Shown: positions 19,131 to 47,342, counted from the first letter of the whole stretch. The stretch: 63,855 nucleotides of DNA, filler included, from Collodictyon triciliatum (GCA_043381765.1; 8 parts of 8 records of this genome joined end to end with filler, not necessarily neighbours in it), one strand, 5' to 3'. The notes: generated from the letters alone by a model not told the origin. Made by a program: numbers and translations.

Positions 19131-22100
19131 TCTTTCTCCTTGCGGACCCTCTATTCCGCAGACACACCGTGCAAAGTCCGTGTGTCCTTCCATGACCATG
19201 ACCAAAGAACTAGAGTTGATGTCCCAAATACGGACAGACTTGTCATCACTTGCTGAAGCGAGCCAGTTTTCATCCTTGGGACCTTTCACAGGGCAAATCG
19301 CATTTACAGTGTTTGCGTGTCCCTCAAAGGTTTTAGTCACAGTACCAGACTCGATGTCCCAGACAAGGATTCTTTTGTCTCCGCCTCCTGATATCAAGCA
19401 GTCGACCCCAGGCCGGATGTTGACGTAGCACATAGTGAGCACATAGTGAGAATGTCCAATAAGTACTTTGATGCGGTCGCCTGTAGCCAAGTCCCAAATC
19501 GTAATCGTGTTATCTTTGCTCCCAGATGCCAACCAGCGCTCTCCATTAGGACCCTTTATGCCGGTAACGCTATACACTGGACTGAATGAATCGGATTCTA
19601 AAACTCTTATAACGTCACCGGATAACACATCCCAGATACGAATGGTGGTATCATCGCCGCAAGATGCCAACCACTTCTCATCGTTTGGCCCTTGCAACAT
19701 ATGCACACAACTTATCGTCGCCGAATGACCTTCTAATACCTTGACGATGTTTCCAGTTGCAACATCCCAAAATCGAATCACATGGTCACTGCTTCCAGAC
19801 ACAAGCAATTTATAACCATCTGACATTTCCATGACCTGTAAATCCATTATCCAGCTTTTGGGGATACTAAGTGTTTCTCTAGGGAGCCCAAGATTTATCA
19901 TTTCCATCTGACAATCTTCAAAGCTACAGTTTCCTATCTGCGCATTTGAAAGGGAAGCGCATTTTAAATCAGCTCCAGTAAAATTAGCTCCGTCAAGATT
20001 GGATTGACTTAGGTCTGCATAAGGAATCTTAATCCCTGAAAAGTCTTTGCCTTGCAATGAAATTCCCATGAAATTTAAAATTGATATTGAATACGATGCC
20101 TGTTCAGCTTTCTCTTCGTCATTGATGGAAAGAGCCACAATTTGAAATAATGCCGCTACAATCTTATCACGGTCCCACCCGTCGCTCAGCTTGAGATTCG
20201 TGATGTTTTCTGCGATGAAATTTTGAACCCTTGTGTACTCTGCGGGCTCCTTAGTCACGCCTGCTTTCGCATTGTGATAGGAAATACGGACACAAGCACG
20301 AAAACAAATTGAATGAGTCCAACCGAGGTTCTTTTCGTATTGTTGCTTCATCGATTCCCAAAATTCAACTGCCTCCTTGTGTTGGTTCAACTGTTCATAT
20401 GTTTTATCAACCCATAGACATGCGAGCCACGAGTCCCAACTTCCAAACGAGTGTTTTTCTCCGTATCGCAAAGCAACTGTTTTGCTAAGTTGGATGAATG
20501 CCTCCAATGATTTCTTTTCTTTTACAAAAGTTGCAATTTTTGCCGACTGGTGCCCGTCAGCAAGGGACATGCACGTCCTTGAGGATTTTCTAATTCTACT
20601 AGCTCTCTCAAAATAGTCGACTACTTGATTAAAACTAATAATTTAAATGTCATATAATAAATTAATAAAAGTTGGAGCTCTCAATAAGCAAGTGTTGAGT
20701 AACTTTCAATACTGCTATTATCTACCTGTGCAGTTCGAAATTGGTTCTACCAACATTCTCCAAGGAAGTTGCATAGTCAATATGCTGTTCACCCAGCGTG
20801 CGCTTGCGTATTTCCAGGGTCTTTGTATAACAGTTCAACGCCTCGTGATATCTGAAATGCATGATATTCATTTAAAACTGAGAGAAAGCATACTTTGCGG
20901 TTTTAAAAAAAATCAAAATCAAAGAATTCACTACAAGAAAAGGAAAAGAAAAAGAAAAAGAAAAAGAAAAAGAAAAAGAAAAAGAAAAAGAAAAAGAAAA
21001 AGAAAAAGAAAAGGAAAAGGAAAAGGAAAAGGAAAAGAAATAGAAATAGAAAAAGAAAGAGAAAGAGAAAGAGAAAGAGAAAAAGAAAAAGAAAAAGAAA
21101 AAGAAAAAGAAAAAGAAAAAGAAAAAGAAAAAGAAAAAGAAAAAGAAAAAGAAAAAGAGCCCACTCTTTGAGGTCGTGGTGAATAGTCCCAATCATCTCA
21201 TAGGTAGCTAAAACACTTGGATCATTATCACCCATCGTCTCAGTTAGAATGTGTAAAGACTCATCGAGTAGAGCAAGGGCGTCACGCTCTCTGCGTATGA
21301 ATAAGCAAATTATTATACTTATCTCTTCATCCTTTTCAGCTTCGTTTGAGTTAATACATACTAAAAAAAAAAAAAGAAGAGGTGTATATGTGACTCTACC
21401 TCCCTTGGCATATCAAAGCTTTTGATATATGAGAAAGGACTCGAGCGATGGCGGGGTGTTTCTCACCGAACGTATTTTTTAGTATCAATTTGGCTTTCTC
21501 GTATTGAGAAATAGCTTCTTCATGCCTAAAAGCAAAGTTTAAATGTAAAGTTACATATAGTTTCCTTTATAAAAGAAAATTCATACTTTCTCTCAGCAGC
21601 TAGGACATGTCCAAAATTTTCAAGCGAAACAGCAATCAAAGGATGCTCATTTCCAAGGTTTTTTGAGCGAATCTCCATGGATAGCTTGTATTCACTGACA
21701 GCTTCTGTGATTCTAGAAGTCGTGAAAAATTAAAACTATGCAATTCTATGAGCTAGTATATGACGAATTGATTAATTTGCATTTATTTACCTATTTTGTA
21801 GCAAATAAATATCTCCAAAATGGTCATGAGATTGGGCCATAATTATATTCTGGCCTCCGTATCTTCGAGATCGAGCATCGTATGCGGTGCGATATTCGCT
21901 CATCGCCTCTTCAAACCTATTGTTTTTAAGAATGCAGTGATGACTTTTTTTTTTGAAAAATTTCTTATTCCTCATGATCCATATGTTTCTATGTCCCCTG
22001 GACTTTTGATAGTACCTTTGTTCTCTTTGATACACGTAGCCTTTTTCATCATGAATTGAAGCAATATAGTCATTTTGATCGCTTTGTGTAAGTTCACTGA

Positions 22101-25100
22101 GAACCAGGCATCTTTCAAAGTAATTGATTGACTCTTTCCAACTTTGTTGTCCATGCCGAAAATATATATAGGAAATTTATTTTTAAGCGTAAAGCATCTA
22201 TCTTGAATGAGTAGGTCAAATGTATAACCCAAATTGAAAAATATTTAGTATTTTGGGGTACCAAAAGTGAACAATACCTTTGCGTATTTTTATAGACGCA
22301 CCCTAATTTGAAGTAATCGCCAGCTTTGCATTCTTTTGTAAAAAAAAATAAAAATAAAAAAATAAAAAAAAAGTTATATCAAAGTTAAATTCTTTTCTAA
22401 ATGTACTACCTCCTTGTTTACTGTAAATAATATATGCGCCTTTCAAAGAAAAAAAAAAGGCAAATGTTTCTATAACTGGTTGAATAGATTACTCAAGCGA
22501 TAAATTTGCACCTTCGCTTGAATGTTTTGCAAGGCGCTGAACAATTATAGACGTAAGATATGAATTCTCAAAACTCTCCAGAAAAAAGTCCACTAACAAA
22601 TCCCCAACTGTTTTCATCGACTGCATTTGTGAAAGTAAATTATGTCAACCAAGTACACTAGAGTATGAAAATAAATGCTTCTAAATTCAGTAAAATATCT
22701 CAATCGATGTCCTACCTTAATCATAGTGTTGTAAACGTCCTTATAATTCGAAACCCCTTTTGAGTTGATAACTCTCCAATACTTGAAAAATTCATATCTA
22801 TACCGACCATTCAGCATACTGAGAACAACCTAGTTTTTATTTTATTTTTTTAGGAAGACAATCGAAACAAAAAAAAATCCAATAGTAAGAACAAATAAAT
22901 TAGACTTTTTTTTTTTAAAAAAAAAATCAGAATAAAATAATTACGCCCTACGTCAACTTACATGCTCGTTTTTAAGATACTGCACTAGTAACTCAAAACA
23001 TTCCCCTTCATGAAGTTGATAACAAATTTCGGCAATAAGTTCTTCATCAATATCTGCATTTTCTGCGTATCGACCATATAGCCAAGTGCCATATATCTTG
23101 TGGGTCGTGAGTACTTCACTTTTTTCAAAGAAATAGATGCCTATAGTCTCTAGAAGGAGCTGGTGGAAAAACATATGCCTGATGCAAATTTCATTAATAT
23201 ATTCATTCAAAGTGTAGTAATAGTGTTATTCTATTATTTTTAAATTCATAAGTATGGATCCTATTTACATTTAATTACATAGTTGACTAGTATACATACC
23301 TTCCATTTTTCACGAACAAAGACTCCGATAGGGTAAAGAAAAATGATTTCCTGTGATAAGCATTTATATTTATCGCCAGCCACGATTGTGCTCACTATGT
23401 AACGAAATCAAACCATTCCGATAGGTCGAAGACTTCCCCCATAATGCTTTCCATGTACTTGTCAAGATCGCTTTCTTTCAGACCTATCCTAGAGATGAAT
23501 AGTACTTGCATGGATATCTCCACATAGGGTTTCTCTATATTCCCATGTATAGAATTGTCAGTGAATCTGTATGACAAAAATATTTCATTCTAAAGCGAGA
23601 ACGAGATGTGTTTAAATGAAATCGTAAGCATCATGATTTGTAATCCCCGATATACCTTTTATGTTATACTTGGTTCTCCATCGGTTTATTATGAGGCTGT
23701 AAAGATTAATGACACCACTTGGTGAAAGTAATATGTTAAGCTCTTCTCCCAGTCTTTCATATACTCCAAAGATGCGTATCTCATCCAAAATAAGTCGAAG
23801 ATATAGTGGGTGTCCTATTAAAAAAAATTCTGATCGGCAAAAGAAAACTTGACCAAAAAAATTGTGGGGGATATATGAATAAAAATTGATAGATGTAAAA
23901 TCAAATAAAAATAAGACCAAACTACCAGTATTAGGGTAGTGGTTGATTATCAGTTGTATCTGATTCGGGTGCAGTGACTTGTCGTAGCGGCGAAGGAATG
24001 TATCAATACTCTCTTTAATCTCCACATCATTCAGTTTGGTGACTGGAATCATATCTAATCCCATTTCACTGGCAGACTAACATGTATATAATGCGTGAGT
24101 CTAGCACAGAGCGTGGATTGCCCCATTTTTTTCATGATTAGAGTATGTGAAACAATAAACTCCCTATGTGATATTTACACTCATTTAATATAAAAATATA
24201 AGTAACGATGTATTTTTTTGAAAAAAAAATTAAACTTGGCAGGAAGGGTGAGAATCTATCGTAGATACAAGAATTGCGATATTGCTTGGTGTCTTTTTTG
24301 GTAGCCATTTTAGCATATGTGGAACAGGAATTTCTTTTGACGGACAAAGCTGATTAATTGCATCGATAACAAATACGAATTTCTTCGCACTATGAAATGA
24401 TAATATTTTTTTGGTTAAGAAAATGATGAAGGTGAATCAGAGTACAGCCTTATTCATAAAAAATTGCGATTGCTAAACCTACGAATCCCATCAATCAAAT
24501 GTAAGAGCTCGTGCAACCCACAGTTTCCATATCCTAAAAGCCATCATGGAAATAAAAAAAAAACTGCATTTTGAAATAGAGTATAAACACAATCGTAAAG
24601 TATACCATTATCAGACTTTGTCTCCGAAAGATAATCGAGTTTATCCAACGACAACCTCCAGAAGCGAGCGAATATACTGTAGAAATTCATTTATATAATC
24701 ACCCTCTGGTTGATATTTATGTTGATACACTACAATTCTAACAAAATACCTCTCCACAAAGTTGCTCCAGTTGGTACATCCAACAAAATGATAAACTATA
24801 TTTAAACATGGATCGTTTTGTGCATGTAATTCTCTAATGGTAGCAGCCATCAAAGATGACTTTCCAATCCCAGATTCAGCAGCCAATATAGTTATATCCT
24901 CGTCATGTTTTTGGAGCTGCGACATAACCTTTATATGTGGTGTTATTCTTCGATATTTTTGCTTTATTTTTTTTAAAAAAAATTATAATGTATTTTTGAT
25001 TCGAATTAAAGGAAAAATGAATAATGTATTAATTTCATGTCACTTAACGTCATATCAAAATTCAAGGAATAGAATTTGATAATTGACCATTCATCTATCT

Positions 25101-27967
25101 TACTTTTGTTACTAAAGTCCCCAAGAATTCCTTCCTTCCTCCAAAGCCAATAAGGCGGTGCATTTTGAATTGCTGTTGCGCCTGTTCTTCAGGATCCCTT
25201 ATCTTTGTTATTATTGTTATAATTTTTCTTTAAAAAAAAAGTATAGAGTGTGTCAAATCCTGGCATTATAGCATGAATATATCTGTTATTTAACAAAATT
25301 TTTCAAAAAAACTATGTAAAAATGTAATTACCCAGTCAGTAGAAAAGTCTCGGTTTATGGCGAACGTAAGATGGGCTGTCATAAAGTCAGAGTAAGCTTT
25401 TGGACAATCGTATGTTACATAGCTATACTTCAACTTGATAGAAGCCTTGAGTTTTTCTTGCTTTTTTCGCTATGAAACATAAATATGGAAAGGATTAAAT
25501 GCTCGGACTCGAAATAGCACGCGTGTTTTAGGTGTGCTATATTTTTGTGGTTTACAAATGTAAGAAAGACAAACACTCTCTTCATTTTCAGCTTGGCATA
25601 GCTTCCTTTCTTCTTCATTTTTGGCTGTTGCCACAGCAATTGACTCGTCTCGAAAGTAAAAGAACACTCGGCTGCATGCAGGCTTCTCAATCAAGGCTGC
25701 ATACTGGACCTGATTATTATTTTTTTTAAAAAAAAGAATTAATGTTTTATCATTTTCTTTCATTCGTTATAATTTAATAACGAAAATTATAAAAAAATTT
25801 CAAACCTCATACTCAGTGACACTTAAACCAGGAATGTCGTTAATGAATGGAAATCTCTTATTTGTCTCGCTTCTCCATTCAACCCACAAATCTGTTAAGA
25901 ATGCATCGGGTTTCTGCTTCTTGAGTTCTTCAAATCTATATAATATGTTGAGCTCGGTCTTGTTTTGATCTGGTATCCAACCATATCGAGCTCCAAGGGA
26001 ACATACGAAGTAAGGACACTTCGAGATCGAGTCCAAACAACGAATTACAACCTAGTTTAATATTTGGTTAGAACTAAAGCATAATTATTTTTTTTTTCAT
26101 AGCAAACCCATCCTTCGCTGCTGTCTTTTGAAGTTAAACCCCAACGAAGGTCTATGAAGACAATTTCGATGGCTTTTGATTTTGCCAAATTCTTTAATCT
26201 GAACGAAGGATACACTGAGAAATCTCATTGATTGAATATTTGCGACAAGAGAATCTATTTACATATTCGAAAAGTTTGTGACATACTCAACAGCTCCGTG
26301 CTGGAAAAAATAATCCCTTTCATTTTGCATGTCTCGAAATGTAGAAGACAAGAATATGCGAATAACTCTCTGCTCATTCACTGAAGCTGGTAAAGGTGTA
26401 CATGTTGTATAGCACTGAGGAGCAGCAATCCATTTTCGAACTTTTCTATCTCTCTGTTCCCTTTGTGATGTCGTTACCTTGATAATTTAATCGTGTGTAC
26501 TCGATTGAGATTTCATTATTTAAGCTGGTGGATTTCAAAAGAACAGAAGGTGATCAATTATCCAAATTAAATTCAAACCCTGTCAATAAATATGCACGAC
26601 CGAATCAAAACGATTGTTCCTTTTTCATCTTCCTTTGAAAGTCCTTCAAAATAGGTGAAAAAGTTGGTGGAAGCCAAAGAAAAAACTCATTATTTAGGTG
26701 CATAAAATATCATTACAAGTGATTTTCACTTGTAATTAAATCGATGAAAGAAAAGCAGCTAAAGGAATAATTGGCAAGGTGTGGAGAGAATAGTAAACAA
26801 GCATATACCATCAAACAAGAAAGGGAGATTGTGTTTTTGGCAAAGGGTCTTGGCTAGAAGGTATCTTTCTTTTGAAGTTTTCTTTATGTTTTATTGTGTT
26901 GCTTAGTTGATATTTGCGATCAAATAGATTGACTAAAAAGTTAGTGATCAAATAAATTTGGTTATTACGCCAAAGTCAATCTTCTCCTTAAGGCTGCTTT
27001 GAATCAAAATCCAGATAATTAATCCGATGATGTCTGTTAGTCGACAATTTTATTGAATAGATGAGAGGTATAAAAAAAATCACTGTGATTCATACTTTGT
27101 TATAAAGTTTAGCAGGATAAGCCGAAACCTTGGAAGTTAGCAGTCTTTGCTCTGTGTTGTTCCTCTGCATCAATGTCTGTGTTTTCGACAATCCATTTTC
27201 GCAATAAATCCTGATTTTCTCTTACGAATGTCAAGTCTTCGATTGGTCTTTGGCTACATATTGTTCCAAAAAAAAAAGCAAATTATTCTAGAAATCTGAC
27301 CAATAGTTTACGTTGGTCTACGGTAAAAAATATACATATAAAAACAAGAAACGAAAATAAGAATCATATTATGGGTCAACAGGTTATTTGAACTTGAAAA
27401 ACTGTGCCAGCTCAGCATATAATGCGTCAGATAACAAAACAAATTTATCTAATCAACAACATAAACCCTACGCCGATAGTCGTGTGTGATAGTTGGGTAT
27501 CGCTTTGTCTGAAGTTATTTCAACCAACATTATAAGAAAGAAGCAGTCCTCCATATCAGAATCTACATTTGCGGCTGCGAGCTCTACCTTACCTAACTGG
27601 TAATTGCTCCATTCTAAAAAAGCCTATCATGTATTCAAGCTAGTTTAATAAATTAGATCACGGATACTGGGTTTGTATCAGAGCCCATAGTAGGGTGAGC
27701 AAGAATGTTCCGCTTTCTTTGTAATCCCTTTGGGGAAGAATAGTCCAATGACATGATCATTTCAAGCATGGAATAAAAAAAAAAGAATCAACCAAGGACA
27801 TGCACGCGAAGGAAGTGAAGAGAACAAAGAAAAGGGGTTGAAAACGAGAAGAAGAAAAAAGAGGGAGAGAACTAATTGAAAGAAATCACCTGTTTGATAT
27901 CATCCTTCTCACTCAATTGCAAAGGAGCTTCTTTCTTGGCCTTCCTGGAGCTGCCAAAAAGACGCAT
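19131..27967 (-). CDS. CH-DUF4062-NACHT-TPR-pentapeptide-WD40 protein, 3'-truncated at the contig edge (paralog B)
   Basis: ATG 27967 MRLFGSSRK; CH-like FLEWSNYQL..DMEDCFFLIMLVEI..REN..IIGLIIWILIQ; DUF4062 IRIFLSSTFRDMQNER..DLRWG..LGARYGWIP..SVTEYE; Walker A AAESGIGKSS; GHPLYLRLILDE; six 126-nt TPR exons; final exon 20634-19131 with pentapeptide repeats (ADLSQSNLDGANFTGADL) and WD40 repeats (GH..WLASGS.D.TI.IWD). Confidence 0.88.
20935..21157. repeat. (GAAAAA)n-type microsatellite in intron
   Basis: Direct inspection. Confidence 0.95.
24985..25030 (+). mobile_element. Micro-retroposon copy 6 (diverged) with ~10-bp TSD
   Basis: ataatgtatt + tttgattcgaattaaaggaaaaatga + ataatgtatt; intronic. 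Confidence 0.65.
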
Positions 27968-28079
27968 CGGCAGCACTTTCGTTTTCCCTCTCTTTCTTAT
28001 GCCAATAACTGCAAATAACACTTTCAATTATTTTTCAAATGAGATAATGGAAAAATTAAATGAAAAAAAATAAAACATG

Positions 28080-28506
28080 AATTAATGGAAAAGAGAAAGT
28101 AAATGAAAAATGAAAAATGAAAAATGAAAAATGAAAGATAAAAGATGAAAAAGAATAAAGGAAAAAGGAAAAATAAAATGAAAATAAAAAAAAGATTAAT
28201 GAAAAAGAGAATGAAAAGGGAAAAATAAAATGAAAATAAAAAAGATTAATGAAAAAGAGAATGAAAAGGAAAAAAAATGAAAAAAATTTAAAAAAGGAAA
28301 AAGGAAAAGTGGGAAAAGGAAAAGTGAAAAAAATGAAAAAAAAAGGAAAAGGAAAAAGGAAAAGGAAAAAAAATTAAAAAAATTAAAAAAAATGAAAAGA
28401 ATTAAAAAAAAGGAAAAGGAAAAGGAAAAAAATGAAAAAAATGAAAAAAATGAAAAAAATGAAAAAAATGAAAAAAATGAAAAAAAAGAAAAAAAAAAAA
28501 AAAAAG

Positions 28507-28582
<76 letters not shown>

Positions 28583-28682: not shown

Positions 28683-28718
<36 letters not shown>

Positions 28719-28812
28719 CCTTTTCCTTTTCCTTTTCCTTTTCCTTTCCCTTTCCCTTTCCCTTTCCCTTTCCCTTTCCCTTTCCCTTTCCCTTTCCCTT
28801 TCCCTTTCCCTT
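28080..28812. repeat. A-rich low-complexity, poly-A/poly-T and (TTTCCC)n tracts at contig ends
   Basis: Direct inspection. Confidence 0.9.
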
Positions 28813-28910
28813 TTCTATTAGAAATGCAAGTATAGAATATTAACCATTAAAAATAGAATTAGTTAATTAGTTGATATTGGATGATAATGATTGCGATATT
28901 TTCCTTTAGA

Positions 28911-30076
28911 ACCCTGGTGTGATGCAGAAAATATTCCTTCCTTCGACTCATTCGATTCAACTCTCTTGATTCCATCTGAACTGCGACTCACACCTGATTT
29001 GCGACTGTCTGCATATGTCGACCCGATTCTTTTTTCTCATTCAAATATATCACCAAAGGGCATAGTACAGTGCCAGCCATTTATTGTCAAGCCGAAACAA
29101 ACAAGCTGTCAAGCGAAATTACCTCGAGTACCTCTGGCAGAGTCAGCATCAGAGGATACAGGCCAAAACTCCACAAGGATACCGATTCCAGATCCAAAGC
29201 AGTTTGATACTTCATGCTCTGCTGAAAGTACAGAAAATGAAGCCTGTCATCCAAGTGTAGGGAATTCAGAAGATTGCGTACGAAAGAGAACAAACCCTAC
29301 AGGTTTGTTTCATTTAGAATATTATGAACAGTTAGTGCATGAATCTATACATTTATCCTATTATGACCAACTATAAGGAAACCAAAGAATAACCATCATG
29401 ATATATCTCCTTCTATTGCAGCTGAGCCTGTAGCAGGAAAGGGGGTCGATGATACAGACAGGCAAGCCATTTTCTCAGCAAAAATGAGGAAACAACTCCC
29501 CACAGTAAATGACAGGATTGGATTTGAACCTGAAGCAGAGGAACCTCCTCGTGTGACTGCAGAACAAGTTGTTTTGATCGCAGGATACTCGCCGATCGAA
29601 CCTTCTCAAACGCAAACAAATGAAAATCTTCAGACTTTAGTGGACATTTCAACGCACCCTGGGATTTTGTCACGCTTTGTGCCACCCGCACATTCGACAA
29701 CGAGGAAGGAATATGTTAATATGCACCCAGATATTGGCATCCAGGATTCAGGGAACTCAATCGATGATAGTTGAGTACAAGGTGAAAAAAACGAAACAAT
29801 CATGAAAATCCCTAGCTTATGTTGAAGGAAGATGTTATACTAATAATTTTATGTATGCTTCTTTTTTTTTTTTTTTTTTTTTTGTTTGTTTGTCCGTTAG
29901 CTCCTGTAAAAAATAAAATAAAATTGCGCAAAAAATAAATAAAGAAAATAATAGAACAATTTCGATGGACAACCTCATAACGTGACTCAGTACCAAAGCT
30001 CTCTGTTGGATATCAACCGCAACGCCTGAAGAGACCACTCTTCTCGAGGACCTTGAAAAATCACTGGGAATCTGAC
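28911..30076 (+). CDS. Probable 3' exons of an unidentified Ser/Pro/Glu-rich protein
   Basis: Higher-GC open stretches bounded by ag/gt (28911-29302, 29422 onward, 29901 onward); no recognisable domain. Confidence 0.4.
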
Positions 30077-31922: not shown

Positions 31923-32897
31923 TTATTTGCGAGCCTTCTTTTGGTACTCATCCATCAGCTGCCTCTCCACCTCCTTTGCGACAGGGTTATATTGCTTGTA
32001 CTCCATCTGGAACTCTCCTTTTCCCTGATAGAGTAATGTTTTTAGGTGGTATTTTTGGGGACTTTATTTTATGAGGGATCAAGCATATGCAATTTAGCGA
32101 TGGACAGTATGTGACAAAGTGTCAAGTTCAAAGCAAAAAAAGCGAAAACACATTACCTGGGTCAATGAGCGTAGCTCAGTAGAGAATCCAAACATATTAT
32201 TGAGTGGAACCTATCAAATCATAGGTATATATTCAGTCACACAGTAGATAATATTTTTTTGCCACTCATGACCGAGAATATACATACATACATACATACA
32301 TACATACATACATACATACATACATACATACATACATACATACATACATACATACATACATACATACATACATACACTATAATGAAGGACTTACATCGAC
32401 TTCTAATGCGAAATAGTCATCTGGAGTCTCTGTGGACACGATGACACCTTTGCGCTTGTTTACTGAAGCCACAACAACACCCTGTTTGGGCGTATAAGTT
32501 TACAGGTGCCATCTGGATTGCGACAATTACAAACGTACTTGGAATTCTACAGGGGCCTGAATAGCTACTTTCATAATTGGCTCTAAAACGATTGGCTGCG
32601 CTATTTGGTAGCCTATAAAGCAAAATGAAGTGAATGTCTGTCCACTCTTTAATAATCACTAGCAGTCGAACGATTAAAAGTCATTCATTGGTACGTTAAA
32701 AAAATTATCCCGGTTATGAATTCAACATATATTGCATTCTCGTTTGATTGAATAAAAATATAATAACCCACATTGGCGGAACGCATAAAGGGCAGCGAGT
32801 TTAAAAGCAAGTTCGCTGGAGTCAACTGCATGGTACGCACCATCCGTCAAAACCTGTATTTTTCGGGTGAAACCGGGTCAATTTGGAGAGAAAATAA

Positions 32898-35587: not shown

Positions 35588-35683
<96 letters not shown>

Positions 35684-37463
35684 AAAACCTTCAATTCCTC
35701 AACACTGGGGTCCTCCTCTGAGAGAAAAATATCACCCATTGTTTCATCCACTTCAGCTAACTAAATTAAACAGAAATTAGTCGTTCTTCATAGTAAAAAA
35801 AAATAATAATAAAAATTGCAGGAAAATGACTCGTCTTCTTGAAGAGGCCGTTTCTTTATTTCGACCTTACGAATTGTGATGTTTATGAGGAGACCTGTTG
35901 AATAAGATTATGTCGCTTGCTTTTGGCCTCTGCGGCAAGATTTTCGGGTATGTCCTCTTCGATAATAGTTTCACTAATGAAGGAAATTGTTAATTGTCAA
36001 ATTAATCTAAATTTTACTACCTTGCTAAAGAAAAATAAATGTAATAGATGCATTACAATTATTTGCAAAAAAAAAAAAAAAAGAAGCTGCCGTGGTGTCT
36101 CATACAGAGGAGAAAAAGAAAGATACAAACCCGTTATTTCCTTTGAAGTAGAATGCTTTCATCTTCACCAAATCAATCAGTCCTTGAAATTTATCATCAG
36201 AACCAATAGGCATTTGGAGTGCGGCAACATTTAGGCGAAGTTTATTCCTATCCGACATGAAAATCAATTTAATTTATTTCAGGTTAAAAAGTTTATATTA
36301 TCAGAAGAAATAATGAGGTGCGATATATCAAAGCGAGAAGAATGGTTTAAAAAGAACCTTGTTTTTTTATTCGAATTTAATATATATGTGAAGAAATGGC
36401 CCGAAAGGAAAAAGGAGAAAGAGATGGTTATTAAATGGAGGTGTATTCATCCATACTTGATTTGGTCGATTCCTCTCCACGGATTGGCTCCTTGTCTGTC
36501 TAACTTATTGATAAATACCAAGCGAGGAACTCCATACCGTTTCATCTACAGGTGCAGATTAGGTGATCCATTACAATCAATGTCAATTTCCTCAGACTTT
36601 GGCATTTCATATAAATAAGTGAACCATATATAACCTGGCGATCTACGGTGCTGGTCTGACTCTGAACTCCACCGACACCGCACAACACAAGAACGGCACC
36701 ATCTAGAACTCGCAAAGCGCGCTCCACTTCGATAGTGAAATCGACGTGACCTGTTCGTGGATTTATTCAAACAGATGAATATTACATAATTCAAGAGCTT
36801 TTTTATATAAAAAACTATATGTGCCATGTTGAAACCCAGAGGCTGATGTGAAATGTAACACATTCGAGATGGAGGCCAACCAGGTGTATCGATGATATTG
36901 ACTCGGTGGTCTCTCCACTGCAGGAAAGTGGCTGCACTCTGGATGGTAATGCCCTTTTCGCGCTCAAGTTCCATGTGATCCATTGTTGCACCGATGCCAT
37001 CAGAGCCGCGGACCTGTTATATCAATTATCAGAGGATGAAAGAAAAATAGTCAGTACTAATAGAATGCAATACGATGACACATTTAAAATCTAACACGAT
37101 AAGATGCACAGCTTAAAATAATTACAAAGTAATTAAAATAAAATCAATTCAAGTACGAATACTACAATAAGTAGAGCATCAAACACTACTTTATTGTAAG
37201 AATGGGAGCTGGCCACGCAAAAAAAAACCAAAAAAAAAACGCTCTTTACTTCGTGCATGTGATTGATTCGTCCGGAATAGAAAAGAATACGCTCGGTCAA
37301 AGTTGTTTTGCCGCTGTCGATGTGCGCTGAAATACCGATGTTGCGGAGATAACGGATATCGGAAACCTGCGATATTTGTTTTTATTTGTTTGGGTTACGT
37401 GTTTTGTACTTGTTTCTTGCAGCAGGCACGATAGTTGAGTTATTTTGTAGTCATTGGCAGAGA

Positions 37464-37494
<31 letters not shown>

Positions 37495-37912
37495 AGTATA
37501 AATATATGGTGCTACACATTATGTTGAACAAAGAGAATATGGTAAGTTACCATTTCCTTCAGATCCTCTGAGGCATAGAATCTGGGGAGGATAGTTTGCT
37601 TTTGCTACGGGGTTTTAACAGAGGGTAATTTAAAGGATTCTGGAAAAACAATACATACACTCAAAGAGTTTGTGTCGAGTAAATGATAGGATATTATTAT
37701 ATTGGGCGATGAAATCACTCGAGTTCTGGGGGGTAGGAGTCATGCTACTTTTCTATTATTATATACTACTCACGTGAAAGAAAGAGTTGAAAGAGAAGGG
37801 TGGGAGGATAGCAGCCTTTCGTGCATGGAAGATTAATCACCTGCAAAAGTGCGCTTCTTCCCACGCCCACGAGGCGATTCGCACCCACTCCGATCAGGCG
37901 GAACGGAAGCAT
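31923..37912 (-). CDS. GFM1: Mitochondrial translation elongation factor G (EF-G1mt), ~20+ exons
   Basis: N-terminal Arg-rich presequence-like [136 protein letters not shown]; stop at 31923. Confidence 0.96.
32279..32375. repeat. (TACA)n microsatellite in GFM1 intron; also (AAAT)n 32895-32953 and (AAAG)n 35586-35686
   Basis: Direct inspection. Confidence 0.95.
34957..35004 (+). mobile_element. Micro-retroposon copy 7 (diverged)
   Basis: aaaaagaaggt + caaatgatttgaataaaggaaaaaga + aaaaagagggt; GFM1 intron. Confidence 0.5.
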
Positions 37913-39287
37913 CGCTGACTACAAAGCCTCTATAGTGTTTTATCTTTGATAATCTTCTACTTAATTATGTTTTTTGTTTTTTTTGGTTTTTTGTTTTTTG
38001 TTTTTTTGTTTTTTTGTTTTTTTGTTTTTTTGTTTTTTTGTTTTTTTGTTTTTTTTGTTTTGTGTTTTGTTTTTTGTTTTTTGTTTTTTGTTTTTTGTTT
38101 TTTGTTTTTTGTTTTTTGTTTTTTGTTTTTTGTTNNNNNNNNNNNNNNNNNNNNNNNNNNNNNNNNNNNNNNNNNNNNTTAATTAATTAANNNNNNNNNN
38201 NNNNNNNNNNNNNNNNNNNNNNNNNNNNNNNNNNTTTTTTTTTTGTTTTTTGTTTTTTGTTTTTTGTTTTTTGTTTTTTGTTTTTTGTTTTTTGTTTTTT
38301 GTTTTGTTTTTTGTATTTTGTTTTGTTTTTTTTTGTTTTTTGTTTTGTGGAGCGCTGAAATGGAGGCATAGACAAGCGACTGCGATGAATACTGTGTGGA
38401 TGGCAGTTGCTTTGGGGGTTTGGTTTTGTGTCAGAACAGGCTTTTTGGGGGCGGTTTGCCCCCAGCCTGGTAGGAGTGATTTGCAAAGGGAGTGTGGGTT
38501 TGTGGCACGGGAGAGCGATCGGCTTGTCGGCTTGGTTGGCAATGAGGACATCCATGGCGAGATTATTCTTCAGCCCAACGAAACCAAAGAGCCCAAGAAA
38601 AAAATAAAAGGGGCGCAAATTAAAGTGTTCATGAAATGGGCGCCAGTGGGTGAGTTGTGTCGCAACCTCATTTCGACCCTCATGTCTGCAAACAACCAGT
38701 TTTTTGTGTTTGTGTGTTTGGTTTGGGTTTTGGACTTTGGCTTGGGTGATGTTTTGTGACTTGGAAGTGGATATTGATCTGGACAGTGTGGTGGAAATGT
38801 GGGTTTTACATGGCAAATATCTGACTGGAAATTTATGATCAATTGCATTTCAGTGTAAAAATTTGCCGAATGTGGATGGATGCTTTGGGTTTAGAGTTTG
38901 TTTGTGCGGACTGAAGTGGAATTGGTTTTTCGAATATTTGTATCTCTTATGGAACATCCAAATGTGTATAATCTATACTAAATATGGTATTAATATTTGA
39001 ATTGTTTGGGAAAGTACTTTAGTATTTCAGGAATCATTAGAGTTTCGTGTGGCTGATTCTCACGCTGGAGTTCGCCACAGAAAAATTCTGTTATTTTCTA
39101 GTACCATAAATTAACAGGACATGATATGTTCTGCAAATATTTGTTTTTAGTTTTCTGAACGCATATAATGACCTAATAAATATATTTTCCACATTATTAA
39201 AATAGGTTTGGTATGAGCAAGAGCCCAGGGCTTTTGTCGCAGATACCCTGCTCTTGTGCTTCGTTCGGTAATTGCAATTTCGTTGAT

Positions 39288-42200
39288 TTATTGCCTTGAA
39301 GCCACTAGTGCTTTCCACTCTGCAGTTTTCTCCTCGTTCTTCTCCACGACTAAACCTTGCTCGTATAGATGAGCCATCCACTCGGCTTGAAAACGCGTGC
39401 ACTTTCCAGCCTCGCAGAATCGAATGAAATCCTCATCGCTCGATATGGCCCCAAGAGAAAAAAGAATATGCTTATTGTCATCACCCAAGCACACGGTATT
39501 TTGAATATTGATATCTCCTCCAATAGTACGAATGTCCTTCCATTTCTCTTGGGAGCCGTCACTTTTAAGAGGCAAGTTCATCGAAAATCTCTTTGCATCA
39601 AAAACGCTGGTGAGTGATGCAAGCACTCTTTGCGGTTCGTCTCTAGACACCAAATCTACATCGCCGTTCACTACCAAATTGTCTTTGGATAATGTGTGCA
39701 ACAGTGTTTTGCTTTGAATGTCATAAATGAATATGTTATCTTTACTGTCCGCGATTAGAAACCAATTTTCTTTGTTGGGTCCACGAACGGTACACAAAAA
39801 TCCGCTTTTTGTCCATTCTTCGAACTCACAGCCACCTGATTCCATTACATCCCATATGCGAATCGAGTTGTCGCCACCACCAGATACTAAGAATTCCACA
39901 CTATTCGGGCCTTTGATTGGACAAACAGACTTAACGGAGCCAGTGTGGCCCTCCAGCATTTTTACTTGAGTTCCCGTCTCCAAGTCCCAGATTCTCACCT
40001 TCTTGTCATTACTTCCAGATGCCAACCAGCTCTCACCATTAGGCCCGCGAACTTGGCAAATGCTCCAAATATGGCCAGATGCCCCTTCAAGGATTGCAAT
40101 ATTTTCTCCGGTTTCAACGCTCCAGAGGCGAATCGTCTCGTCACTACTTCCCGACGCCAACCAGTTCTCACCATTTGGTCCGCTCACAGAGCAAATAGAC
40201 CAAATAAAATTGGTGTGGCCTTCAAAAACACGAACCCGGGTCTCGGAGACCAAATCCCAAAGAATGATTGTATTGTCTCTTCCACCAGATGCCATCAAGC
40301 TTTCTCCATCAGAACCTTTTACACTGCAAATACTAAAAACAGTGCTTTTATGTCCTTCAAGCGTTCTGATTTGGTTTGCGGTCGCAACATCCCAAAGCCG
40401 AATTGATTTCCCCTCACTTCCAGAAGCCAACCAGCTATCACCGTTTGGGCCCTTAATTCCGCACACAACAGTCACAGAGCTTGTGTGTCCTTGCAATGTA
40501 TTGATTTGGGTTCCGCTAACCACATCCCACAAGCGAATGACACGACCTTCACTACCTGATGCCAACCAACATTCTCCATCAGGGCCTGGAACATAACATA
40601 TACTACGTACTGCATTTGTATGACCCTCCAGAACCTTCACAACATCGCCAGTTGACAAATCCCAGATCCGAATGGTTTTGTCACCACTGGCAGATACCAG
40701 GCAGTGCTTCCCATCTGGCATAGGAATAGTACATACACACCTTATGGAATTTGTGTGCCCCTCCAACTTTCGAACAGGTAATCCCAAAATTATATGCTGC
40801 ATATTTGAGTGACTGAAATCACAATGGCCGAGGACTGAGTTTGATAAGTTGACTGAATCCAAATTAGCTTTTCCGAAATCCACACCGTCGAGGACCGAAC
40901 CACTCAAATTTGCCCGCGGGATTTTAATGTCGCGAAGATTCATCCCTCCAAATGACATATTCATGAAATTAAGAAAAGATATCGATATGGAGGCGCTTTC
41001 AGATTTGCTTTCATCTGAGCAAGATGCAGTGATTATCTCGTACAAGTATGAAAAAATCTCGAACGAATCCCAAACAGGCTGAAATGTCGCACTAGGAAGT
41101 GTTCTGGTTATAAAATCTTTCACAGATGTGAACTCAATAGGCTCCATGACGTTTCCAGTGTATTTGGAATGTAAAGATAACATCCTACAAGCACTGAAAG
41201 TCCTTGGGTGGACATGCCCAAGCTTTTCGATAAAAATTGACTTCATTTGCGTCCAAAATATCATGCACTCATCATACAAGCCCTTCTTGGCATACAATTC
41301 GTCAATTTCCATTGCTGATGACCACACCCCTGCATGCTCATAGGAGTATTTTTCTCCGAAAAGATGGATTAGTTTTCTGTTCAAATAAACTGCAACATCA
41401 GATTCGTTATGATGCAAGGACATCTTCTTTAGTTGCCCAATCTGAAGAAAATTATTGAATGACATGGGGGTGTTGGTTGTTATCCTAATCGTAGTAGACT
41501 CTTTCAAAAATTCAATAACTTGATCGACCCTACAATTTTTAAGTTTTGAAAAAAAATGAAAAATGAAAAATGAAAAATGAAAAATGAAAAATGAAAAATG
41601 AAAAATGAAAAATGAAAAATGAAAAATGAAAAATGAAAAATGAAAAAAAAAAAGAAAAGAAAAAAGAAAAGAAAAAAGAAAAGAAAAAAGAAAAGAAAAA
41701 AGAAAAGAAAAAAGAAAAGAAAAAAAGAAAAGAAAAGAAGAATGGAAATTACAAGTAATAGAATACCGTTTAAGCTCCATGTTTGTGCGTCCGATGTTTT
41801 CTAAAGCCGTAGCAACATCGGGGCTATGGACTCCTTGAGTTCTCTTACGAATATCCAACACTTTGGAATAGGCAGACAGGGCCTCGAGATACCTTATACG
41901 CAAGGATTCTGTTAAATAATTTTTCCCTTTATTCGATTCAAGGCCTGTTAGATCCATATATATATACTGAAAAATGAAAGAAGAAACAGGGTTTACTTTT
42001 TAGATTTATGGCTTAAATCTCCAATCCTTTCGAAACTCATGATGACTTTTGGGTGATTTTCTCCCACCGAATGCGCCATGATTTCAACAGTATTTTTAAA
42101 ATAGTCTATTGCAGTCTCCGTTCTGCACATGATATCTGGGGTCAATGGAAATGATAAATGATAGAAATCTTAGTGTTGTCGAAATGAAAACTTACTCGCC

Positions 42201-45200
42201 CATAGCTTCATGAATACCAGCGGCATCGAAGCATATGGAGCCGATTAACGGGTGAGCTTTCCCGAAAGAATCACGAGATAGTTCGAGAGCTTTGTTGATG
42301 TGCTCGAGAGACTTGGCGAAACTATATTCAAAAACAATAGCAAGGAGTTTAGGAAAGAGTATGTCGAACAATTTTAAAGTAAATGTATTTCCTACCTCTT
42401 CTTGGCCAGTTCAAATTTGGATATATTCAAATAACATGACGCAATGAGTGGATGGTCCTGGCCAAGAAATTTAAGGCGAATTTCAAGAGACTTCATGAAA
42501 TATGAATATGCTTCGTCGTACCTAAGTGTCAAGGTATGGTCGGTAAAAATGCGTAATTAAAATTGAGTTTTTCTTTCCAAAATCACTTACGATTGTCGAG
42601 CCAAATGCACGCTTCCGAGGTAATCGTAAGAGCCCGTCAAATTCAAACTCGCCTCTCCATATAATTTCATCCTCAAATCGTATCCTTTTTGAAGATGGAC
42701 AATAGCTTCATCGTTTCTATCAGTTTTCATTAGAAGCCTTTATCATTATTAATTACAGAAATCATAAATTATGAGCAAACTTGTTTTGTTTGTAGAGTAC
42801 GAATCCGAGTTCATCATAAATTTCGGCTAATTCTTCATCCTCCTCGATTATGCTGTGCAGTTTAACCTCCAAGCATTTAGAGAGCCATCTAATTGACTCT
42901 TCCCAACTATATTAAATGAAACTATTAGTGATATTGAAGGAGCATGAATAGATTTCAATTTTATGTGCTTAGTATTGCATCAGAAGGAAAAAATCATACT
43001 TTAGCATATTTTTATATACTCGAGCCAGTTTCAAGAAATCCAAGCTCTTTTCATCTCCATATGTTCTCTTTGATATCCTGTGGGAAAGGATAGTAATAAG
43101 AAAGGAATTCTCATACGACTCCAAGAAGAAATCGACCAGTAAGTCTCCCACTTCATTCAGTGATTTTACCAAAGATCTATAAATTTCTTTGTAATTTCCA
43201 ACACCCTTTTCATGTAACACTCTCCAGTAATTGAAAAATTCGTATTTGTGTCTCCCACGAAGCATCTTGGTTACAACATATTCTTTCTGAAGATACTCTA
43301 AGAGGGTCTCGAAGCATCCACCCGAGCACAATTGGAAACATATCTCGGCAACAACTTCATCAACATCCTCATTCTCAGAATATTGGCCCACGAGCCACAT
43401 GCCATACTCCTTTTGAGCCTCTGATTTTGAAATTGACTCTGAAAAAAACACCTGCTGAACAGTTTGCATTAAGAGATGGTGAAAATACATGTATCGACCA
43501 TTCCTTACAAACAAGGACTCAGTTAGTGTAAAAAAGAATGATTTCCATGAGGCCATGGCCAATTTAACACCAATGGTATCCTGAAGGAACTTATCAAGTT
43601 CACTTTCGCTCAGACCAATACGTGAGATATATAGCACTTTCATGGAAAGGTCGACTATGAGCGACCCAGGCGAGTTGTACTTTATCTGCCATCGATTTAT
43701 TATCATCGTATATAACTCCAGTACTCCGTTGGTTTCCAGTAAAACCTTCAATTCTTCATTTAAATTCTCAAAAATCCCATAGACTCTAACCTCCTCCAAT
43801 ATAAGTCGCAGGTACAAAGGGTGCCCTGTATCCTCAATATCATCCAAAATCATATTCAATTGCCCGTCGCTTAATTTTTTGTCGAAACGTCCCAGATACG
43901 ATATAATGCCTTGCTTAATTTCCACATATTCAAGCTTGGTAACAGGTATGTATTCCATTTGACTGCCTTGGATGGAATGAAACGAAGCATGTGTGTCTAT
44001 AGTTGATACAACGAAAGCTGCATTCTTTGGTGTTTTCTTTGGTAACCAAGTGAGCAGGTGAGGGGAAGCAGTCTCTTGTGAAGGTTGTAGCTGATTGATT
44101 GCATCGATTAGAAATACATAATCCTGACCTTTCTTTTTGAACTCGATGTATTTCATCAGCCCATGCAAGGCTTCCTTTTGAAACTCGAGATTATTTTTTG
44201 TCTTTGATTTTCTGGAAACCTGTCTCTCTTTTTTTAGGACGATATTCCAAAATCGTACTGATAAACTTTCCACATAGTTGCTCATGTTTGTGCAGCCAAC
44301 AAAATGATAAATTACATGTAAATTTTTCTTTTTTGACCTCTCTAATAGCTTGACTGTTGCGGCCATGAGCGATGACTTTCCCATGCCCGATTGAGATGCA
44401 AGAACGATTATTTGTTTATCAGGAAATTCTAGTTGTTCATTAATTCGAGTATAGACTTGATTCAAAATACTTTCTCGTCCCTCGAAACCAATCAATCTCT
44501 GCTTCATAAATTGGAAATGCGCCTCTTCTTCTTCGTTTTCATGAATCTGTCTACGGGAGAAGTCCTTTTCAATAGCATAAGATAGATGAGATGTAACCGT
44601 ATCTGAAAATTCGGCTGCTCCTTTGTACACATATGCTGTAAATTTCTCTTTAATTTTGGTCTTTAGCCTTTCTTGCTTTCCGGCACTTTCGTCATTTTCT
44701 GCCTTGAATAAAACCTTCTCCTGTTCATTTTTTGCATTTGCAAGAGCATATTCTTCGTCCCGAAAGTAGAAAAACACCCGACTGCAGAATGGTTTTTCTA
44801 TCAACGCGGCGCATTGAATCTATGATACAGGTCTTATTGACTGGCTGCATTATGATACCACAGCTTATTTATTTTCAATTTTTTTTTTTTATGAAAAAGT
44901 ATCCTGCGATTCTAACCTCATATTCGGTCACGCTAAGCCCAGGAAGACTTGATAAAAAAGGAAACATTTTGTTTGTTTCCGGGTGCCATTGGTTCGGATC
45001 GGACTGGTCGGGTATCCATCCGTACCGTGAACCCAAGTGACAAACAAAATAAGGACACTTTTTGATAGAATCACAGCACCTGATTACCACCTACAAAGTT
45101 CATAAAAAATTTTAATTTCTTTTTGCAAGATGTGTTTGTGTAGTTTATTTTACCCATCCATCACTACTTTCGTGATGCGTCAGTCCCCAACGTAAATCGA

Positions 45201-47342
45201 TAAAGACTAAATCGACGCCTTTTTCTCTAGACATATTCTTTAATCTGTGTTGCAGGTTTCTTAGGTTAATATCAATTTAAGCTGTTTAGTGTAGATCAAA
45301 TCAAAAATTTAATTTTGAAAAGTATAGACATATATATATATATATATTCTTACTCTACGACGCCATATTGAAAAAACCGGTTTCTTTCTGCTTGCATATC
45401 ACGAAAAGTAGATGACAGAAATATCCTCAAGACACCCTGCTCTACAACAGCCATGTCTAAAGGTTTTGCAGTTTTGTATTTCTGAGGTGGCAAAGTCCAC
45501 TTTCTGACCTTGGCCTCTTTTTCTTCTTTCTGCTCAGCTAAAACGCGATCCTTTATCATGCAAGATCCGAGTAGCAAGACAAAGGCCTTTTCATTGGCAT
45601 CCATATGCTTGAAGAAAAATGGAATTCTGAGTTCAGAAAAAATCTCCTTGGATACCTCGAGCATAGACTCGGCTGAAACCTTTTTTTTTTTTTTTTTTTT
45701 TGTATATTAGTACTAATAGACTGTAAATATCTTGTTAGTTTTTTTTTTTAATTATTCTCCACAACTAAATAATAAAACCAACGTTCATATTTTCCTTTCC
45801 GATACTCCTACAAAGCAGAACCCAGATAACTTGATATGCTATGTTATCCGATGCAAGTCCTCCCGAAAATTGAAATGCTGTCTCTCTCATCTCAACGCTG
45901 ACAAAGTCACTCAGCCATTCACGAATTCTTCGATTATTCTCTCTAATCCAGGACGACTTTGAGATAGGTTCATCACTGCAAGATAATTCCTTTTTTTAAT
46001 AATATTTACTTAAAAATGTAATGTATTTAGAGAATAATCATGAAATTTTACACATATAGACGAGATCGGTAATCTGCTATCGGTTTTCCTGTGACTACTT
46101 CGATCAGGACAATGAGGATGAAGCCATCCTCGAGGTCAGTCTCCATATCTTTTGCCTTCAGGTCAATCTTGGACAGATGAAAATTAATCCAATCTAGGAT
46201 AGCCTTTGAAGCAAAAACGAAATTTAGGAACACAGCTCCTAGTAAATAAGCTATTTTATGTTATAAGCATAGCCTATACAAATGTATCATGCAATACAAA
46301 CCTCATTCTCAATAATAGACTTTGGTTTGTTTATAACAGACATGCGCCTTGGAGAGTCCAAAAGACCACTAGAATTCTGACGGGGCATTTCACTAAGCAT
46401 CATGACTCTGGTAACGGGTGAATCCCAGTCCCCAGATGGGCTTGTTGCGTCAGGGCTGGCTTCCAGTATGCTCGAATTATGATGCTGTAATTGCTGGGTC
46501 TGTTCCGGCGCTCTGACATTTGGGTGAGCTCTTGTGCGAGAGAACCTTGAGCCACCTCCGCACATTTTCAGAGAAATCACCAAGCGAGGCTTTTTATTAT
46601 CCATTATTCGGATTATAAAAGAAAATTCATTGGCATGGTCGACAACGAATTTCATAGGATTATCCCCATCCAACTTCAATGAAATGAAAATATCATCCAC
46701 AGTGGTTAATTGTTCTGTAGCCTTGTCGAAAAGAAAAAATGAGACTAAACTATTTTCTCTTTCGACACAAAACACTATTTGATCAGTGGTTTCCACAGGT
46801 GTCTTTGAAATCCAATCATTAGTTCTGTGTGCTGCTTGTAATTGGGCACGATAATGTTCCAAAATATTGATTGATGCATTTCTCGGGTTTGGAGAATCTA
46901 TTTTATATAATCAAATGAATTGGTCGAGTACACAAGCGACAGATAGAGAATTAGGATCATTCTGATGTAGGAAAGAGTGATACTCAGAAAAAAAGTTAAA
47001 AATCATTTGGTACTTTCATTTGAATATGTCCGTGAAGTTTGACTTTATCAACACGAATATACGATGATTATTTTAACATGCATCAGTACCGTTGGGAGTG
47101 ATGACTTCATCTTGACAGATACGAATAATGTTGATGGATAGACTTTCGTTCTCATGTAATCCTTTTCGTATTTTCAAAAGAGATTGATTTTAATTGTAGG
47201 TGTGAATTCTGCCCTTTTATGTAGTATTTTACTTTCAAACTGATGTGTTTAATCAAAGTAACCAGTATAAACATAACACATCCTACTCACCCCTTGCAAA
47301 TTCAATAAGGAGAGGATATAACCGGATTGTGCGCATATACAT
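39288..47342 (-). CDS. (Unknown N-terminus)-CH-DUF4062-NACHT-TPR-pentapeptide-WD40-Sel1-like protein (paralog C); start codon tentative
   Basis: CH-like AILDWINFHL..DMETDLEDGFILIVLIEVVTGKPI..REN..YQVIWVLL; DUF4062 LRIFLSSTFRDMQAER..IDLRWG..GSRYGWIP..SVTEYE; Walker A ASQSGMGKSS, Walker B YVFLIDAINQL; six 126-nt TPR exons (42907-41768); last exon 41529-39288 with pentapeptide repeats, ~7-8 WD40 repeats and C-terminal AHLYEQGLVVEKNEEKTAEW. Confidence 0.9.
41909..41953 (-). mobile_element. Micro-retroposon copy 8 with ~9-bp TSD (1 mismatch)
   Basis: ctgttaaat + aatttttccctttattcgattcaaggc + ctgttagat; intronic. Confidence 0.7.

Follow-up and report, generated by a model that had tools for sequence, protein, structure and literature searches.

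The stretch of DNA analysed here (the window, 63,855 nucleotides (nt) in eight joined contigs of Collodictyon triciliatum, GCA_043381765.1) carries two paralogous genes, B and C, whose products are large proteins with a CH domain, DUF4062, a NACHT NTPase, TPRs, pentapeptide repeats and WD40 repeats. A G+C content of ~35%, many short GT-AG introns and microsatellites mark the window as eukaryotic. An earlier reading made from the sequence alone (hereafter the sequence-only reading) had proposed the order CH-DUF4062-NACHT-six TPR exons-pentapeptide-WD40 for both genes, and this order is borne out by Pfam matches, profile searches and gene models. The features of gene C, given with their lengths in nt or amino acids (aa), are the following.

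39288..47342, minus strand: gene C, complete coding sequence model, 15 exons, 6402 nt, 2133 aa, single terminal stop
47342-47291, 46897-46302, 46203-46052, 45975-45783, 45679-45354, 45244-45154, 45090-44917, 44819-43000, minus strand: gene C exons 1-8
42906-42781, 42716-42591, 42521-42396, 42321-42196, 42122-41997, 41892-41767, 41529-39288, minus strand: gene C exons 9-15
46302..47342, minus strand: N-terminal region, ~215 aa, exons 1-2, no known family
45783..46203, minus strand: CH domain, two exons (46203-46052 and 45975-45783)
44917..45679, minus strand: helical linker and DUF4062/NIR TIR-like domain, exons 45679-45354, 45244-45154 and 45090-44917
43000..44819, minus strand: NACHT NTPase and following helical domains, one 1820-nt exon
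41767..42906, minus strand: six 126-nt TPR exons, 42 aa each, one phase, all flanked by AG/GT
40788..40940, minus strand: pentapeptide beta-helix, ~10 units, in the last exon
39849..40772, minus strand: WD40 propeller, seven confident blades, with a weaker eighth-blade-like region after them
39291..39482, minus strand: helical tail ("Sel1-like"), four helices in an AlphaFold2 (AF2) model

Gene B has the same domain order and comprises the following features.

19131..27967, minus strand: gene B, 3'-truncated; 31 exons with 5154 nt that code for 1718 aa, reading frame open up to the contig end
27967-27890, minus strand: exon 1
27623-27472, 27253-27129, 27033-26969, minus strand: CH exons
26477-26287, 26198-26108, 26051-25806, minus strand: DUF4062 exons
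25709-22278, minus strand: NACHT region, 15 exons
22141-22016, 21916-21791, 21712-21587, 21525-21400, 21290-21165, 20851-20726, minus strand: six 126-nt TPR exons, all flanked by AG/GT
20634-19131, minus strand: last exon, with a helical region, pentapeptide repeats and five WD40 motifs

Three Diphylleia proteins serve as references throughout. P0001 (1245 aa, Diphylleia rotans) is a CH-DUF4062-NACHT protein with Pfam scores of 34.1 bits for CH, 42.9 bits for DUF4062 and 27.4 bits for NACHT. P0002 (2619 aa) and P0003 (2401 aa) span the chain from CH to tail and align with model C over every domain, P0002 being co-linear with C to the tail. In gene C, the N-terminal region is followed by a single CH, the helical linker, DUF4062, NACHT and six TPR exons with one repeat each, and then by a helical region, the pentapeptide beta-helix, a 7-blade WD40 propeller and the helical tail. 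All 14 introns of gene C are of the GT-AG type and measure 63-393 nt; in gene B, 30 of 30 introns are GT-AG and the reading frame contains no stops.

The junctions of gene C were read by eye and then checked with a purpose-written spliced protein-to-DNA aligner, which reproduced the model when given the model's own protein. Guided by P0002, the aligner returned the same junctions from 46203 down; where the sequences diverge, it also opened a few minor gaps that are spurious. The gene model of the sequence-only reading was accurate, and its start codon at 47342 and its six TPR exons were read correctly; the start and the first intron are in frame and come from reading by eye without confirmation by a homologue. 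The first ~215 aa of gene C gave no Pfam match at E<=1 and are 19-27% identical to the N-termini of P0001, P0002 and P0003. The leader before the CH domain comprises 26 aa in gene B versus this ~215-aa region in gene C. The two genes also differ in their introns, with 14 in C versus 30 in B overall, and the region after DUF4062 through NACHT forms one 1820-nt exon in C (43000-44819) versus 16 exons in B.

We considered whether the architecture might be an artefact of gene modelling or assembly, in which the CH exons would come from a neighbouring gene or the contigs would be chimeric. Such an error would be conceivable in a window of concatenated contigs with models built on genomic sequence, yet it appears extremely improbable. 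Gene C lies wholly inside one contig (38235-47681) that contains no N, and its CH and DUF4062 exons are joined in frame via short GT-AG introns of 63-109 nt, those between the CH and DUF4062 exons measuring 76-109 nt. At the junctions of CH, linker, DUF4062 and NACHT, the joined peptides equal the Diphylleia proteins in length, residue for residue. Gene B repeats the order independently, and the same order is found in Trinity open reading frames (ORFs) and in a Collodictyon fragment. The sequence-only reading had named a separate transcript for the CH exons as one of the findings that would overturn it. The CH exons belong to the gene, because single Diphylleia rotans Trinity transcripts with CH, DUF4062 and NACHT, as well as the 377-aa Collodictyon triciliatum fragment P0094, which starts inside the CH and reads CH-linker-DUF4062, carry the CH together with DUF4062.

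For the CH domain, Pfam, which was run on single exons or ORFs, matched the first CH exon of gene C (46051-46260) to PF00307 with 27.1 bits (cut-off 26, E 5e-6, profile positions 4-47 of 109). The corresponding exon of gene B (27471-27623) alone gave no Pfam match at E<=1. It is 53% identical to residues 189-239 of P0002 (E 4.5e-12), and the CH domains of B and C share 34% identity over 111 aligned residues; gene B is called CH because of these two identities and not by a Pfam match of its own. We then built a profile, A2, from three Diphylleia segments and window exons and searched it against all PDB sequences. A2 matched the CH1 domain of alpha-actinin-4 with E 1.4e-6 over 108 positions (profile positions 13-120), and also alpha-actinin-1, -2 and -3, plectin, MACF1, filamin A/B, NAV2, spectrin and parvin. 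The best CH sequence matches are the CH1 domains of alpha-actinin, plectin and filamin.

Fold comparisons used an AF2 model of residues 175-560 of P0002, and hence a Diphylleia homologue rather than a window protein. The mean predicted local distance difference test score (pLDDT) of this model is 55.3, with values of 64-86 at model residues 11-170, which cover the CH and the two following helices. In a Foldseek search against the PDB, the 14 best rows were tandem-CH actin-binding domains with probabilities of 0.96-1.0, and among 48,161 representative chains searched with VIA-align the first 20 rows were all named CH proteins. The best VIA-align row had a Z score of 7.8 at a root-mean-square deviation (rmsd) of 4.4 Å over 144 aligned residues, where a Z below 8 can reflect a common arrangement. 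Compared with the alpha-actinin CH1 on F-actin (3lue_K), the model gave Z 6.8 and rmsd 3.0 Å over 100 of 109 residues. Since Pfam, PDB profile and fold evidence agree, we accept the CH assignment; the call made in the sequence-only reading passed both the profile and the structure test, with modest scores. No second CH was detected by Pfam in P0001 or in the C exon 45353-45706, and the CH is followed by an 80-aa segment of two helices, the linker to DUF4062. With one complete CH only, the protein does not have a tandem-CH actin-binding domain of the alpha-actinin/spectrin type. It resembles these proteins in its full-length match to CH1 and differs from them in its one CH plus two-helix segment and in an identity of only 12-22%; actin binding by it is a prediction. 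A further CH-like segment was noted by eye in residues 1-130 of P0002, ahead of the CH studied here; residues 1-188 of P0002 had no tblastn match in the window.

The DUF4062 domain (PF13271) was matched in gene C with 19.1 and 25.9 bits on exon pieces (25.9 bits at 44878-45090, cut-off 24.7) and in gene B with 25.7 bits in exon 25803-26051. Against the solved DUF4062 domain of TEP1 (11gz_A), the A2 profile reached E 4.4e-18. In this alignment, R15, R83 and E115 of the TEP1 chain face the motifs STFRDM, GxRYG and SVTEYE, which can be read directly in both B and C; SVTEYE ends the C exon 45090-44917. An offset of 893 would map these three chain positions to R908, R976 and the catalytic E1008 of TEP1, and all three agree in residue type with this assignment. 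Judged from this alignment, the catalytic Glu and the two substrate-site Arg are kept in the predicted NADase domains of B and C. The adjoining NACHT exon of gene C matched NACHT (PF05729) with 31.5 bits (cut-off 26.7) and nSTAND1 with 32.2 bits (cut-off 27.1), and it reached the cut-off for NPHP3_N with 24.8 bits. Walker A is intact in both genes (GMGKSS in C, GIGKSS in B), and the C exon is 56% identical to both P0001 and P0002.

Conservation is uneven along the protein, as is evident from the identities of gene C to gene B and to P0002.

DUF4062: C versus B 72%, C versus P0002 75%
NACHT and helical domains: C versus B 51%, C versus P0002 56%
CH: C versus B 34%, C versus P0002 47%
TPR: C versus B 33%, C versus P0002 39%
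WD40: C versus B 42%, C versus P0002 41%

DUF4062 is thus the best-conserved part of the protein. Since the identities of gene C to gene B and to Diphylleia P0002 are roughly alike, the paralogs are old. The CH is the least conserved named globular domain between the paralogs (34% in B versus C), as if under changing selection. This would suit a role as an integrated bait or sensor, or as a Vav-like autoinhibitory cap, in which disturbed CH-actin contacts or a pathogen factor targeting CH proteins would free the NACHT switch. The position of the CH on the N-terminal side, beside the presumed effector, and the presence of autoinhibited Vav1 CH among the fold matches point the same way. Nevertheless, we consider such a role quite unlikely: it has no direct support, STAND sensors are usually C-terminal and a large C-terminal repeat array is already in place there, and CH as an integrated NLR domain was not found in the literature.

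The C-terminal half consists of three repeat arrays. TPR_12 (PF13424) was the top Pfam match in five of the six TPR exons of gene C and came second, after TPR_11, in the first. The exons scored 13.1-27.8 bits each against a cut-off of 30.1, aligning from model position 19 or 20 to 52-59 of 77 and hence with about half of the model. By comparison, TPR_12 scored 35.3 and 22.8 bits in gene B exons and 136.5 bits in P0002. In gene B, gene C and a third paralog of the window, gene A, each 42-aa TPR corresponds to one 126-nt exon in the same phase (41767-42906, 20726-22141 and 12354-13500). Because these exons are all 126 nt long and in one phase, the frame would survive duplication, loss or skipping of an exon, and the repeat array might change rapidly in this way.

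In the last exon of gene C, the pentapeptide family PF00805 was matched with 35.1 bits (cut-off 20.2). WD40 (PF00400) scored 191.5 bits in seven stretches in C and 119.7 bits in B, and the WD40 part of C contains seven xRxW[DS] motifs at a spacing of 45 residues. We modelled this exon with AF2, using gene B, P0007 and P0005 as alignment rows (mean pLDDT 74.1). In the model, residues 1-188 form helical repeats and every fifth residue from 197 to 247 carries a strand; there follow seven blades at 253-560 with pLDDT 80-95, a poorly predicted stretch at 563-682, and four helices in the form of helical hairpins at 683-745 with pLDDT 67-89.

These last helices form the tail for which the sequence-only reading had proposed a Sel1-like repeat present in C and lacking in B. 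The difference between the two genes did not hold, since gene B is cut by the contig end (19131) inside its WD40 repeats and the absence of a tail therefore reflects truncation. Nor was the Sel1 identity confirmed. The tail region (39291-39662) gave no Pfam match at E<=1, and the best of three phmmer matches in the PDB, the Sel1 repeat protein 6ur7_A, stayed below threshold with E 0.096. The second match was 4bwr_A (E 0.58), presumably also Sel1-like though not so named in the match table. The tail aligns with those of P0002 and P0003 at 22-24% identity. "Sel1-like" hence denotes a resemblance and not demonstrated membership in Sel1 (PF08238).

To place the architecture among known proteins, we ran a search with the NACHT exon of gene C, which yielded 21 longer proteins with E<=0.001. 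EukProt Trinity ORFs with 39-59% identity took the top seven places, and the five of them that were looked up were all from Diphylleia rotans. At least 12 distinct Trinity genes are among the EukProt matches, ten of which were looked up and belong to Diphylleia rotans as well. When the CH-to-DUF4062 part of P0002 served as the query of a word-indexed search, 69 proteins were returned. Only P0002 itself and P0003 covered at least 95% of the query; the other 67 covered at most 54% and only on the DUF4062 side. In an exhaustive search of 1.84 billion representatives with the A2 profile, 9032 proteins matched at E<=0.001. Among the best 150 of these, the best match started before profile position 120, and thus overlapped the CH, in three: P0002, P0094 and P0188. 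The TPR protein P0188 has no CH by Pfam, and none was found in the nine proteins from the A2 list that were scanned with Pfam. An Atlas search with residues 255-700 of P0001 yielded DUF4062 clusters only, with scores of 0.75-0.77 (below the 0.9 line). A hidden Markov model of the pentapeptide segment matched five of 248 collected proteins, all five from Diphylleia. According to precomputed Pfam lists, DUF4062 proteins from elsewhere, such as P0085 and P0062, likewise combine TPR with WD40 families.

The literature gave a corresponding picture. Judged by title or abstract, no relevant paper was found on CH combined with NACHT and STAND, and none was found on CH as an integrated NLR domain. The word "calponin" does not occur in the main texts of the two DUF4062 preprints discussed below or in the eLife 2020 paper on conflict systems; the supplements of the preprints may list Diphylleia proteins. 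"Pentapeptide" is likewise unmentioned in the main text of either preprint. The sequence-only reading had called the architecture unfamiliar; this applies to the combination of CH and DUF4062, which was met only in collodictyonid sequences, and not to the DUF4062-NACHT-repeat core, which according to the main text of one of the preprints is widespread in eukaryotes. On the sequences searched, the core is common, and both the CH fusion and the order TPR-pentapeptide-WD40 were seen only in collodictyonids. In architecture, B and C are a variant, specific to their lineage, of the NIR(DUF4062)-NACHT NLR-like proteins described in 2026 and not a new kind of system.

Three preprints from 2026 connect DUF4062 with phage defence. 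DUF4062 is reported to be a TIR-like NADase whose bacterial homologues form the Swarozyc defence system, and human TEP1 to hydrolyse NAD+ and NADP+ in a manner that depends on E1008, with contributions from R908 and R976; at higher concentration the specific activity is greater, as would be expected if oligomerisation activated the enzyme (main text of 10.64898/2026.05.01.722283). A second preprint, in its main text, renames the domain NIR, shows that it has the effector role in Avs2, Vulcan and Vesta, and describes NIR at the N-terminus of NLR-like proteins as widespread in eukaryotes (10.64898/2026.09.04.749371). The TIR-like fold and NADase activity that the sequence-only reading had brought into play for DUF4062 have meanwhile, on these accounts, been demonstrated in bacterial systems and in human TEP1.

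Among the known systems, TEP1 shares with B and C the order DUF4062, NACHT and WD40 and, in front of the NADase, an N-terminal module presumed to serve targeting. It differs in carrying TROVE and vWA at the N-terminus, where B and C have CH, and as described in the preprint's main text it has neither TPR nor pentapeptide repeats; moreover, the NACHT exon of gene C is only 22-24% identical to TEP1-like matches (P0014, P0019). NPHP3/TTC41 and NWD1/NWD2 likewise place an N-terminal DUF4062 beside a NACHT-type NTPase, which is followed by KLC-type TPRs in NPHP3/TTC41 and by WD40 in NWD1/NWD2. The family of B and C matches the Pfam entries NPHP3_N and TPR_NPHP3, but its chain joins TPR and WD40 with a pentapeptide beta-helix between them and adds the CH. 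The bacterial systems Avs2-NIR, Swarozyc, Vulcan and Vesta resemble it, as far as their description in the preprints goes, in that an oligomerising sensor has a DUF4062 NADase for its effector, following an abortive-infection logic. They differ in being prokaryotic, in lacking CH and introns and in having other sensors, and the only direct sequence match to them was weak (KpSwz 10wc_A, E 0.39, A2 versus PDB).

These comparisons suggest that B and C encode NLR-like STAND NTPases with a gated NADase that is positioned by the CH, an interpretation to which we assign a probability of roughly 55%. If TEP1, Avs2 and other STAND proteins are taken as models, the C-terminal repeat array would keep the protein off as long as no ligand is present. 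Ligand binding would lead to NACHT-driven oligomerisation and thereby gather the DUF4062 domains, which, once clustered, might hydrolyse NAD+, yielding ADP-ribose plus nicotinamide, and so cause local or cell-wide NAD+ depletion. The CH, being closest in sequence to actin-binding CH1 domains, would position the protein at some cellular structure, F-actin being the likeliest, in the way that TEP1 is placed in the vault by TROVE-vWA. Both immune function and actin tethering are what we infer from these resemblances. The "cytoskeleton-tethered innate-immune receptor" of the sequence-only reading was worded more firmly than is compatible with a single CH and with human proteins of the same core that, according to the preprint's main text, are inactive as NADases.

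Several points weigh against a gated, CH-positioned NADase. Human NWD1, NWD2 and NPHP3, assayed as full-length proteins in vitro, lacked NADase activity (main text of 10.64898/2026.05.01.722283). Since these proteins are inactive despite their DUF4062-NACHT core, conserved residues do not guarantee activity. None of the three is a known immune receptor, and no observation links the family itself to infection. The canonical actin-binding domain consists of two CH domains, from which the single CH here departs. Roles of CH domains also include microtubule binding and autoinhibition, and EB1, SPEF1 and Vav are among the CH fold matches. Fold scores were modest, with a best Foldseek E-value of 5.7e-3 (no row at E<=0.001) and a best VIA-align Z of 7.8, below the caution line of 8, and the DUF4062 part of the P0002 model was poor, with pLDDT below 50 over much of residues 172-366. 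Finally, the models of B and C are predictions from genomic sequence and Diphylleia proteins.

Some of this evidence would also fit a housekeeping scaffold like NPHP3 or NWD1, which we regard as rather unlikely. Such a protein would organise a cytoskeletal or flagellar structure, with DUF4062 as an interaction module or as a domain for local NAD(P) binding or turnover and with the repeats as assembly platforms. With 24.8 bits, the NACHT region attains the cut-off of NPHP3_N, the TPR exons match TPR_NPHP3, and the CH fold matches include the axonemal and microtubule proteins SPEF1 and EB1. The inactivity reported in the preprint's main text for human NWD1, NWD2 and NPHP3 and the roughly equal distance of C from P0002 and from B, which indicates old, stably kept copies rather than recent bursts, are consistent with a scaffold as well. 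What it explains less well is that DUF4062 is the most conserved domain and keeps the catalytic Glu and both Arg, which fits an enzyme, that there are many paralogs with varied repeat arrays, as in NLR families, and that the best CH sequence matches are to the actin-type CH1 and not to microtubule-type domains.

The family represents a natural variant in which a predicted NADase-NACHT core is combined with a cytoskeleton-type domain and three repeat arrays, present in multiple copies in a deep-branching protist lineage. It bears on the question of NADase activity and ligand gating in the NIR-NLRs of eukaryotes other than animals, and on whether N-terminal targeting modules, such as TROVE-vWA in TEP1 and CH here, are a general means of placing such enzymes. 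A more specific version appears unlikely in its entirety: an actin-anchored "guard" NADase, in which the CH would hold a pre-assembled DUF4062-NACHT switch on actin in phagotrophic flagellates and the TPR-pentapeptide-WD40 array would sense an invader or a cytoskeletal disturbance. Oligomerisation would then bring about local NAD+ destruction and cell suicide or arrest. If true, this would be a eukaryotic NLR with a NIR NADase effector, and a cytoskeletal domain would encode its position, not the ligand alone.

Three paralogs are present on three of the eight contigs of the window. Gene A was identified by tblastn, spliced alignment, exon scan and a TPR_12 match of 41.8 bits. The start of the contig truncates it at the 5' end, and no WD40 was found in it.

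9578..13800, plus strand: gene A, third paralog, on another contig, with a NACHT region and at least 6 near-identical 126-nt TPR exons (12354-13500)

The eight contigs are separated by seven identical spacers, each N44-TTAATTAATTAA-N44. The 12-mer TTAATTAATTAA places a stop codon in all six frames and thereby marks an artificial contig join.

9478-9577, 19031-19130, 28583-28682, 38135-38234, 47682-47781, 57227-57326, 60636-60735: artificial spacers N44-TTAATTAATTAA-N44
1-9477, 9578-19030, 19131-28582, 28683-38134, 38235-47681, 47782-57226, 57327-60635, 60736-63855: window pieces

The sequence-only reading had treated 19131-47342 as one span. Genes B and C do lie inside it; the span, however, consists of three separate contigs, that of gene B, an unrelated one (28683-38134) and that of gene C. 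As spacers separate B and C, the window does not show their genomic neighbourhood, and a tandem gene cluster was rejected, the genes being on separate contigs. Beyond the spacer at the 3' end of gene B, spliced alignment over 19030-14000 gave noise only, with scores of 61-63 versus 3358 for gene B itself; that nothing related follows fits a contig break at the end of gene B. Five consecutive window pieces measure 9445-9453 nt each, as if sorted by size. With contigs joined artificially and apparently size-sorted, their order in the window is uninformative on adjacency in the genome.

Matches to other families comprise one exon on the contig between B and C and two further features.

36549-37016, minus strand: GTP_EFTU exon, Pfam 41.9 bits, on the contig between B and C
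48241-48993, plus strand: zf-RVT (reverse-transcriptase zinc-binding) fragment, Pfam 28.5 bits
49687-50595, plus strand: weak Sulfotransfer_2-like ORF, 19.7 bits, below cut-off

Long microsatellites of the CT/TTC type lie in or beside introns at 41530-41766, 20906-21164 and 28060-28582. Some of them stay open in frame and inflate raw ORFs, as in a 903-aa ORF (39288-41999) that spans a 237-nt intron.

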